DNA of 41,595 nucleotides from a virus (taxonomy: Duplodnaviria; Heunggongvirae; Uroviricota; Caudoviricetes). Each line of letters opens with the position of its first letter. Position 1 is the stretch's first letter. The position numbers and the translations under genes are program-made. The notes beneath the pieces were generated by a model. The model was not told the DNA's origin and searched no databases. It saw only the letters and a program-made list of their open reading frames with translations. This document shows positions 21,956 through 22,899 of this stretch, in pieces. Location of the stretch: the IMG/VR virus record IMGVR_UViG_2541047952_000001. One strand, written 5' to 3'.

Positions 21956-22000
21956 TCTGGTCCCCATCAACAAGTAACTGATAACTTGAGGAGGTGTGAA

Positions 22001-22207
22001 ATGCACAAAACAGAACCAAAAATCGTCGCGCCCGGATACACAAATGAGGAAATTTACGAGTGGATGGCAAAGAAGCTGGCAGCTATAAACCAGCTTCGTG
22101 AAGTGCTGTCTTATCGACAGGAAACAATAGACTCCTTAAAAAAACTGGATCAGGAAATCACGGTTTTATCACAGGATGTTACTTTAGATATTGTGCAGAC
22201 AAATTAG
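22001..22207 (+). CDS. hypothetical protein (68 aa), first gene of the early-left operon
   Basis: ATG at 22001 with GAGGAGG RBS; helical, charged, not Arg-rich, so not an obvious N homolog. Confidence 0.4.
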   Translation: MHKTEPKIVAPGYTNEEIYEWMAKKLAAINQLREVLSYRQETIDSLKKLDQEITVLSQDVTLDIVQTN

Positions 22208-22613
22208 GATCCCATTCATTTTCGTCAAAATCATCAAAGTGATGAATTTGTGATCTCCAGTCTCGATAATCTAAAAATTTCTGGGCGGTTACGCTTATTT
22301 TATCAAGCGTGAGTTCATCCTGAATTGAAAGAAGAAGTTCATCAAATTTCATCTCATTAATCTGTTTTGGCATCCAGTGATGCTTCATCAGAATAAGGTG
22401 AACCAGAGCTTTTTTCCCATTCAACTGATTATAGGGAGTGCCGAATTTCTTCCGGTGCTCATGTAAGACAAGGTCCAGAAGAGTAAGTAATGTTGCCCTT
22501 GATTCAACTTTGCTTATTTCGACTGATGACACTACCCCACTGATTTCAATGCCCCGATACTTTCCAACATTTTCACAGTGGGATTTGTACAGCGTATAGA
22601 TATTACCGGACAT
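22179..22613 (-). CDS. hypothetical protein (144 aa), low-GC moron
   Basis: AAGGA RBS; convergent with the 68-aa gene, overlapping its 3' end by 29 nt; markedly AT-rich. Confidence 0.45.
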   Translation of the reverse strand: MSGNIYTLYKSHCENVGKYRGIEISGVVSSVEISKVESRATLLTLLDLVLHEHRKKFGTPYNQLNGKKALVHLILMKHHWMPKQINEMKFDELLLSIQDELTLDKISVTAQKFLDYRDWRSQIHHFDDFDENEWDPNLSAQYLK

Positions 22614-22629
22614 TTCTTTTCCTTTTGCG

Positions 22630-22680
22630 TTGTTGGGGATAACCAGATTAACCGAATCCTTGTTGTTGGGGAATAACCAG
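22630..22680. repeat. two direct repeats upstream of the 144-aa gene
   Basis: TTGTTGGGGATAACCAG (22630..22646) and TTGTTGGGGAATAACCAG (22663..22680), 33 bp apart, just upstream of the reverse-strand start at 22613. Confidence 0.35.
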
Positions 22681-22899
22681 GTCCACCTCGCCTGATGTGG
22701 CTAAAAGCAGGCACATAACAGCTAAGTATTTTCAACCAGAGAGAATCCTTAGCGTTGTGGTGAATGCGGCTCAGCGCACGCGGGTTAAGGTTGAGGCTGA
22801 CAGTCGACCTTCTGTGGATACCCACCCGTCTGGTGTGCAACCTTCGCCAGGCACCGGGAGGCACCCGGCACCACAACTTTATGCTGTGTGTAGTCCCGG

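Follow-up and report, generated by a model that had tools for sequence, protein, structure and literature searches.

Convergent ECs1072-family and YdfC-like genes in a moron slot beside the PL-like promoter of an SfIV-type prophage, and their recurrence in other enterobacterial phages

The window analysed here is the whole 41,595-nt stretch of IMG/VR virus record IMGVR_UViG_2541047952_000001, a lambdoid prophage of the SfIV/SfV/CPS-53 type. At the head of its early-left operon lie two small genes on opposite strands, encoding a 144-residue protein of the ECs1072 family and a 68-residue YdfC-like protein, which converge and overlap at their 3′ ends. The conserved convergent pairing of the two families, the orientation rule that it follows across three lytic operons and the reusable ends of the slot that holds it are new, whereas the genes were already known as hypotheticals.

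Two overlapping genes at the head of the early-left operon

The elements of the locus are as follows.

21799..21827, plus strand: predicted PL-like sigma-70 promoter, TTGACA-17-TAAATT, 10/12 consensus matches, downstream of the cI-type repressor gene
21923..21942, minus strand: predicted intrinsic terminator for minus-strand transcription, 8-bp stem with 5 GC pairs, then TTTTTTGTTGCT
21944-21955, plus strand: boxA-like 12-mer GCTCTTTAACAA, exact single match
22001..22207, plus strand: 68-residue YdfC-family gene (phrog_1744), the partner, sense to the PL operon
22138-22144: run of seven A residues (A7) within the 68-residue open reading frame (ORF)
22179..22613, minus strand: 144-residue ECs1072-family gene (NF033230, phrog_5286), antisense to the PL operon
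22179..22207, no strand: 29-nt overlap of the 3′ ends of the two ORFs
22630..22646, no strand: direct repeat copy 1, TTGTTGGGGATAACCAG, 5′ of the minus-strand cargo gene
22664..22681, no strand: direct repeat copy 2, TTGTTGGGGAATAACCAG

A preliminary description made from the sequence had proposed these two ORFs, 22001-22207 (+) and 22179-22613 (-), with their 29-nt convergent 3′ overlap, and had placed them at the head of the early-left operon; both points are confirmed, the operon being driven, as predicted, by the PL-like promoter at 21799-21827. The 68-residue ORF is the first 3′ of this promoter, downstream of cI, and starts with an ATG that has GGAGG 7 nt on its 5′ side. The plus-strand genes 3′ of the pair are yfdP-, yfdQ- (DUF2303) and yfdR-like, followed by xis and int.

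Both ORFs are real genes under purifying selection. The ratio of non-synonymous to synonymous substitution rates (dN/dS) of the 144-residue gene is 0.23 against a 72%-identical Escherichia albertii allele. For the 68-residue ORF, 58 distinct E. coli sequences were compared, 57 of which are intact and one of which has an indel; the non-overlapping part contains 31 polymorphic sites, 17 of them at codon position 3, and the variants divide into 17 synonymous and 17 non-synonymous changes (omega ~0.3). The related loci obtained with a 4-sequence alignment (80 loci, with a 100% identical protein in all) are informative for polymorphism and junctions only. Longer versions of the 68-residue ORF in the databases and in E. 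albertii arise from the A7 run, where copies with one base more or less become frameshifted variants of 80-103 residues; this length variation may be sequencing noise or may mark a slippage-prone tract. A plus-strand terminator-like hairpin within the 144-residue gene (22282-22297) was considered and set aside, as it is not conserved in the E. albertii allele and is probably due to chance.

The module, counted where at least 80% of 21900-22700 is present, occurs in 408 of 5426 complete E. coli genomes (~7.5%), and each exact protein is found on at least 1000 contigs. Given this prevalence, and because both ORFs are already annotated in RefSeq, where the 144-residue protein is named ECs1072 family in E. 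coli genomes, the two genes count as known hypotheticals.

The two protein families

Residues 4-144 of the longer protein align with positions 2-142 of the NF033230 profile (ECs1072 family phage-associated protein) at 157.8 bits, the cutoff being 70, and its entire length (1-144 of 144) matches phrog_5286 with an E value of 1.5e-90. The family comprises 76 clusters at 50% identity, every one of them stand-alone and about 150 residues long; the match here is likewise full-length, and the family description (NF033230; PHROG 5286) contains neither the pairing nor the orientation rule set out below. The AlphaFold2 model, based on a 47-sequence alignment, is compact and all-α, with a predicted local distance difference test score (pLDDT) of 94.7 and a predicted template modelling score (pTM) of 0.89. 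Residues L50, R54, L64, G66, A69, H72 and W134 are near-invariant. The protein is soluble by composition, with a grand average of hydropathy (GRAVY) of -0.47 and no hydrophobic segment, and a fold search with its model returned no structural match. A literature search by ECs1072, PHROG identifiers, UniProt identifier and SfIV orf36 found no paper on the family, only an entry in a microarray table, in which the ECs1072 signal shifts 2.1-fold as uninduced O157 Sakai cultures pass through a growth transition (PMC2241611).

The shorter protein is 39% identical to annotated YdfC-family proteins over 66 of its 68 residues (BLASTP E 7e-17). It reaches YdfC-family genes by tblastn with an E value of 1e-8 in 2.3 Gb and matches phrog_1744 at 4.8e-34; the YdfC family has no Pfam or NCBIfam model for comparison. 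It is acidic (isoelectric point 4.97; GRAVY -0.46; N-terminus MHKTEPKIVAPGYT) and contains 2 Arg, which bears out the earlier remark that it is not Arg-rich. By these sequence comparisons it is a member of the YdfC family and not N-like. YdfC itself is the third small ORF of the dicBF operon of the Qin prophage, its function being described as unknown (PMC5069750; bioRxiv 10.1101/2025.03.22.644768).

The layout around this gene resembles that of E. coli K-12 Qin (ydfA-ydfB-ydfC-dicF-dicB-ydfD), where ydfC is likewise a promoter-proximal small ORF in a repressor-controlled early-left operon, and phages 813R8 and PPompW carry a YdfC-family gene in the same early-left layout. In Qin, ydfC precedes a long untranslated stretch with the DicF small RNA (sRNA) and an intrinsic terminator (PMC5069750), in the place of which the window has an STnc100-like element; the series of ydfC-like ORF, sRNA with terminator and further early genes thus parallels ydfC-dicF-dicB. 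Unlike the window, the YdfC contexts examined hold no convergent ECs1072-family gene. The 68-residue gene had been taken for exotic cargo, a view that did not survive, because YdfC-family genes are ordinary members of dicBF-type early-left operons and are also found there without an ECs1072 gene.

Recurrence of the convergent pair in three lytic operons

Inspection of the genomic contexts of distant ECs1072 homologues (21-37% identity) placed them in three settings. The first is the PL-proximal position in lambdoid prophages (Yersinia mollaretii, Y. massiliensis, Pectobacterium, Proteus and Morganella), where the ECs1072 gene is antisense to the early-left operon and has the repressor on one side and early-left genes (YfdP/DUF2303, RdgC or Exc/Int) on the other. 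P2-like prophages, seen in Pantoea and an Erwiniaceae genome, provide the second: here too the gene is antisense, and it sits within the Cox-to-GPA early operon. The third came from tblastn against cultured phages, in which ST64B and Klebsiella phage KPP5665-2 proved to carry homologues that are flanked by the Q antiterminator and the holin and run antisense to the late operon. At each of these PL-proximal, P2-like and Q-holin loci the operon strand carries a convergent ORF that overlaps the ECs1072 3′ end by 62-227 nt; with the window included, the overlap in all homologous pairs is 29-227 nt.

These partner ORFs share the motif (E/Q)P-x-(I/F/L)-x(8-10)-L-x-x-W-(L/M), represented near the N-terminus by EPKIVAPGYTNEEIYEWM in the window, EPYIYAGDLNAEELLAWL in Yersinia, EPRLFRGDYTDKQLIDWL in Pantoea and QPYFFNPGMTPEQLEDWL in Sb50 of ST64B, with P6 and W21 invariant. 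A hidden Markov model (HMM) built from four non-E. coli partners found the 68-residue ORF as its sole match among 771 six-frame segments of the window (E 0.002), and hhalign of the two partner profiles gave a probability of 89.5% (E 1.9e-6). Over 10 pairs the divergence of the two families is correlated (r = 0.93, Mantel 0/5000), and 9 of the 10 sampled lineages keep the convergent overlapping layout. Compared in this way, the contexts show the ECs1072/YdfC-like pair as what is, by its sequence distribution, a mobile two-gene cassette among enterobacterial phages, with a fixed orientation across three lytic operons. The module is carried by the Shigella serotype-converting phage SfIV, and diverged forms occur in prophages of at least 7 other enterobacterial genera.

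The full-length ECs1072-family ORFs of ST64B (locus L101, 2845-3279) and KPP5665-2 (locus L102, 2818-3291) are unannotated in the deposited records, and the annotated ORFs that overlap them, Sb50 and GP45 respectively, are the YdfC-like partners.

The two genes might instead be incidental neighbours, the ECs1072 gene a stand-alone conversion moron and the YdfC-like gene an ordinary, unrelated early gene, with an overlap of no regulatory meaning. YdfC-family genes at the same early-left position without an ECs1072 gene fit this account, as do an ECs1072 homologue without a partner in one lineage, a recombination breakpoint that separates the two genes in E. albertii, and the variation in the partner's C-terminus and in the extent of the overlap. 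However, a partner-type ORF follows ECs1072 into P2-like early operons and the Q-holin interval, which is unexpected for a lambdoid early-left backbone gene; the retention of the layout and the tightly correlated divergence of the families also speak against chance proximity. We therefore regard an incidental association as rather unlikely, while giving it real weight.

The preliminary description had also raised a toxin-antitoxin-like pair with antisense coupling. The antisense-coupled pair is a reasonable reading of the architecture, because the two genes recur as a convergent pair, but the evidence turns against a classical toxin-antitoxin system, of type II or of a type I-like kind acting through the 3′ antisense overlap, that would stabilise the prophage. 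Two small adjacent genes with a convergent 3′ overlap in a prophage do recall some type I systems, among them txpA/RatA and bsrG/SR4, whose convergent 3′ ends overlap. Type I systems, however, combine a small hydrophobic toxin with a non-coding antisense RNA, whereas the window encodes two conserved soluble proteins and has only the convergent 3′ overlap in common with them; type II systems are co-transcribed pairs with a known toxin or antitoxin fold or family, neither of which was found here. The longer protein, with its GRAVY of -0.47, has no toxin-family match. It would, moreover, be unopposed in the lysogen, because its partner is under the repressed PL. A classical system is thus very unlikely, since the genes are not co-transcribed, the putative antidote lies under a repressed promoter and the ECs1072 gene of lineage L011 is intact in the absence of a partner.

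A slot with reusable ends

The position of the pair was mapped by blastn of the window against its relatives SfV, SfII, ST64B and PhiR29_1. The relatives share a left flank (21845-21912) and a right flank (22683/22738-23058) around a variable interior, and the junctions, at 21912/21960 on the left and 22629/22683 on the right, enclose cargo that differs or is absent:

SfV: orf33, plus strand, and a terminator
SfII: a truncated copy of the SfV cargo and a 63-residue minus-strand ORF
ST64B: no cargo
PhiR29_1: an unrelated minus-strand gene, phrog_1244

Because relatives with the same flanks hold other cargo or none, the region between these junctions is a moron slot. The PhiR29_1 gene lies at 2637-3130 (-) of locus L003, with a probable start at MTAIRETAQ...; its deposited 242-residue annotation is apparently extended N-terminally into the conserved flank.

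The description of the locus as acquired cargo accordingly holds for the variable slot between conserved flanks, but not for the base composition adduced for it. At 40.6%, the GC content of 21986-22700 lies below the 49.5% of the window (11th percentile among 715-nt windows). Low GC does not single out the pair, because the cI gene (40.0%), the cro-like gene (42.2%) and the BRCT gene (38.0%) of the immunity region are equally low; it is a property of the whole immunity-proximal block. The supposition that the 68-residue protein has no homology to N stood, whereas the supposed compositional distinctness did not hold against the cI, cro-like and BRCT genes.

The window and PhiR29_1 have more in common than the flanks, sharing the left end as far as 21960, with the hairpin 21923-21942 and the boxA-like sequence, and the right end from 22629, with both repeats. 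The hairpin contains T.G wobble pairs that are specific to the minus strand and become C-A mismatches on the plus strand, in the window and in E. albertii, where the minus-strand wobble pairing is kept through three substitutions. It is present in PhiR29_1 too, and SfV, SfII and ST64B are without it. Its pairing makes it best read as the predicted terminator of the 144-residue gene's transcript rather than as a boxB.

The repeats lie 34 nt apart, start to start, and the chance expectation for such a 17-mer with at most 3 mismatches is 0.08 per window. The junction with PhiR29_1 falls at 22629, and similarity to SfV and SfII resumes at 22683, directly past copy 2. Direct repeats 5′ of the 144-residue gene had been described as a likely regulator-binding site; they are present, but they are not specific to this gene, as both also stand 5′ of the unrelated minus-strand gene of PhiR29_1. 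Because that unrelated cargo uses the same ends, the repeats and the terminator are read as the ends of a shared antisense expression slot. The PL-proximal slot of SfV-type phages would in that case be a reusable antisense cassette, useful for finding other lysogen-expressed cargo. The repeats were also considered as a conserved feature linked to ECs1072 genes and rejected as such: other genera have different repeats or palindromes upstream, and a MAFFT alignment of the upstream regions was not convincingly homologous in the repeat segment. A third, inverted copy at 75% identity (21954-21973) is at chance level for the tool used and abuts the left junction.

As Hendrix and colleagues reportedly define it, a moron is an additional gene, inserted between backbone genes together with a promoter and a terminator of its own. 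The present locus resembles this in its presence or absence at fixed junctions, its own predicted terminator and a GC content below the phage average; it differs in that the slot ends are reused by unrelated cargo, that two genes lie on opposite strands and that no recognisable promoter was found.

The boxA-like element

The leader was said to carry a boxA-like sequence, and the exact 12-mer GCTCTTTAACAA is present at 21944-21955, with an expected count of 0.24 at up to 1 mismatch. Its counterpart in E. albertii, CGCTCTTTAACAA, is kept although the neighbouring hairpin has changed. The element is limited to relatives with minus-strand cargo, namely the window/SfIV, PhiR29_1 and E. albertii; the leaders of SfV, SfII and ST64B, otherwise identical, are without it. 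BoxA elements can recruit Nus factors and act against Rho, a function that would suit phages of this layout, in which the PL transcript has to cross about 870 nt of untranslated RNA (22208-23081) ahead of yfdP.

The gene had been described as standing where an N-type antiterminator would be expected, and the 68-residue protein could be imagined as an unusual N analogue acting at a nut site that boxA forms together with the hairpin beside it. It is the first PL ORF by position, the exact boxA-like 12-mer lies 46 nt upstream, and two terminator-like hairpins precede yfdP (22900-22936 with T5, and 22945-23033). However, λ N has an Arg-rich N-terminal RNA-binding motif, and this protein is an acidic member of the YdfC family with 2 Arg. 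A nut site has boxA followed by a boxB hairpin, whereas the only hairpin adjacent here precedes boxA and forms its better stem on the minus strand, the plus-strand version containing a C-A mismatch. Nor does the gene simply take the place of N: SfV, SfII and ST64B share the downstream operon and its hairpins but have neither the protein nor the boxA, and the same protein family follows ECs1072 to P2-like and late-operon sites. The idea fails on four counts, namely the protein's composition, its family, its distribution and the strand on which the hairpin pairs better, and we give it next to no credence.

A proposed function for the pair

From this arrangement we infer expression states for the two genes, an antagonism between their proteins, a defence role and a function for boxA. 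The proposal is of a mobile moron cassette in which an ECs1072 factor expressed in the lysogen would meet two opponents in lytic growth, convergent transcription and the YdfC-like protein; we give it a probability of about 0.4. The ECs1072 transcript would start upstream of 22613 and end at the terminator 21942-21923, antisense to the whole 68-residue gene. The PL transcript would carry the YdfC-like ORF first and then run antisense through the entire ECs1072 gene, with boxA possibly recruiting Nus factors so that it survives the ~870 nt of untranslated RNA. In the lysogen, with PL repressed, the ECs1072 protein alone would be produced. On induction or infection, PL transcription would collide with the ECs1072 transcription unit and its RNA would pair with the ECs1072 transcript, and the YdfC-like protein made at the same time would bind and neutralise the ECs1072 protein. 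The latter would most likely have a prophage exclusion or defence-type activity that has to be silenced if the carrier phage is itself to grow lytically, and solo YdfC homologues elsewhere may be counter-measures.

An orientation held in three unrelated operons is argued to be a selected one, and rules of this kind usually mark genes whose expression must follow the state of the prophage. The antagonist reading is suggested by the partner's distribution: it nearly always accompanies ECs1072 genes, on the lytic strand, yet also exists alone. It offers a first functional hypothesis for K-12 YdfC.

The same asymmetry, with ECs1072 almost always next to a YdfC-like neighbour and YdfC-like genes often alone, fits almost equally well with the reverse polarity, in which the YdfC-like protein would be a host-harming lytic effector and ECs1072 a lysogen antidote against leaky PL, Pe or PR′ transcription, stabilising lysogeny. 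The orientation rule would be identical, and dicBF-type operons do encode toxic products, namely DicB, DicF and YdfD (PMC5069750; PMC8835842). On the other hand, toxicity of YdfC is unreported in two accounts that call its function unknown (PMC5069750; bioRxiv 10.1101/2025.03.22.644768), and lineage L011 retains an ECs1072 gene without the supposed target. We favour the antagonist reading, by analogy with rexAB/ren of λ and sieB/esc of P22, and think the reverse polarity improbable.

Several observations weigh against the cassette as proposed. Correlated divergence is expected from physical linkage alone, lineage L011 (56% identical ECs1072 homologue) has no partner ORF, and YdfC homologues are common as early-left genes without an ECs1072 neighbour. 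At Q-holin sites the partner would be produced only late in infection. In some copies the partner's C-terminal third is frameshifted, and in E. albertii the partner has ~94% DNA identity and the ECs1072 gene merely 66-84%, a contrast by which the pair evidently tolerates recombination between its halves. Upstream of 22613 the minus strand has no consensus sigma-70 promoter. Profile and structure searches, proposed early on as a check, supplied families for both proteins (NF033230/phrog_5286 for the longer and YdfC/phrog_1744 for the shorter) but no Pfam, PDB-sequence or fold match for either, and neither matched PADLOC-DB v2 (2023 library) at E values up to 1.

The logic of the antagonist reading has precedents. 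In λ rexAB with ren and in P22 sieB with esc, exclusion in the lysogen is paired with an escape function in the lytic phase. These systems and BstA/aba share a lysogen-active gene beside the immunity region and a cognate element through which the phage's own lytic cycle is spared; they have no sequence or fold relation to the window's pair. Unlike them, the two genes here are convergent and overlapping, with the putative lysogen gene embedded antisense in a lytic operon. Convergent overlapping units are also known from the face-to-face promoters Pe/Pc of P2 and pR/pL of 186, and from antisense control of cII by OOP in λ. As there, the relative strength of the two units would be set by the prophage repressor, but those examples govern lysis-lysogeny genes, whereas the convergent units in the window are accessory and their interference is presumed from layout.

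A bolder version would make the pair a new exclusion or abortive-infection system, consisting of the all-α ECs1072 protein and a YdfC-like inhibitor made in the lytic phase, with the convergent overlap tying each to opposite sides of the switch, independent insertions at PL, P2 Pe and PR′, and solo YdfC proteins, including that of K-12 Qin, acting in anti-defence. We hold this to be doubtful; if true, it would give the long-orphan K-12 gene ydfC a function.

The surrounding immunity region and RNA elements

The remaining features flank the slot.

19792-20040, minus strand: YdaS/Cro-like gene
20176-20862, plus strand: cI-type repressor gene, HTH_3 and Peptidase_S24
20845-21765, minus strand: BRCT-domain protein gene, 306 residues, phrog_3989, convergent with cI with an 18-nt 3′ overlap
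21849..21913, plus strand: structured leader of the PL transcript, ~65 nt, outer stem and two hairpins, a backbone element
22724..22947, plus strand: STnc100-like sRNA region, backbone, right slot flank, Rfam RF02076

The immunity region also encodes a CII-like protein. Its similarity to the relatives stops at 21845, the point from which Shigella phage SfIV is 98.9% identical to the window. The product of the BRCT gene, which is absent from SfIV and SfV, gives a weak PADLOC match to the candidate system PDC-S48 (E 2.7e-7); the gene is likely a further cargo candidate beside the repressor, expressed in the lysogen.

The PL leader, conserved across prophages of four genera (E. coli, Salmonella (ST64B), Yersinia and Pectobacterium), folds into a three-way structure in which 3 pairs show compensatory changes. 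Its placement just 3′ of the PL-like promoter resembles that of putL in HK022. Identification as an HK022 put-like RNA was rejected as unproven: covariance model R1 found no second copy in the window and none in HK022, and blastn found no similarity to HK022 put in the leader or in 22683-23082.

On the other side of the slot, the segment 22683-23082, with a folding z of -7.75, has conserved counterparts in ST64B (77%) and in prophages of Yersinia and Proteus. Within it, the match to the STnc100 family RF02076 covers the full model (1-206) at 41.6 bits (E 2.6e-7), below the gathering score of 47, and it was not reported by an Rfam scan at the gathering threshold. STnc100 itself is an sRNA known from prophages and is related to PasD. 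The matching region ends in the hairpin 22900-22936 and a T-run at 22940-22944. Between this terminator and yfdP stands a further hairpin (22945-23033), with 25-nt arms that are 84% complementary and flanked by an A-tract and a T-tract, which by its form could be a bidirectional terminator; a Yersinia prophage (locus L007, 3672-3753) has an equivalent hairpin in which the arm sequence has changed.

Just past the integrase gene, Rfam calls a tRNA at 27064-27137 (-) with 45.5 bits, but ARAGORN finds none in 26500-27600; the call may mark the prophage attachment site, with a tRNA that is partial or hybrid.

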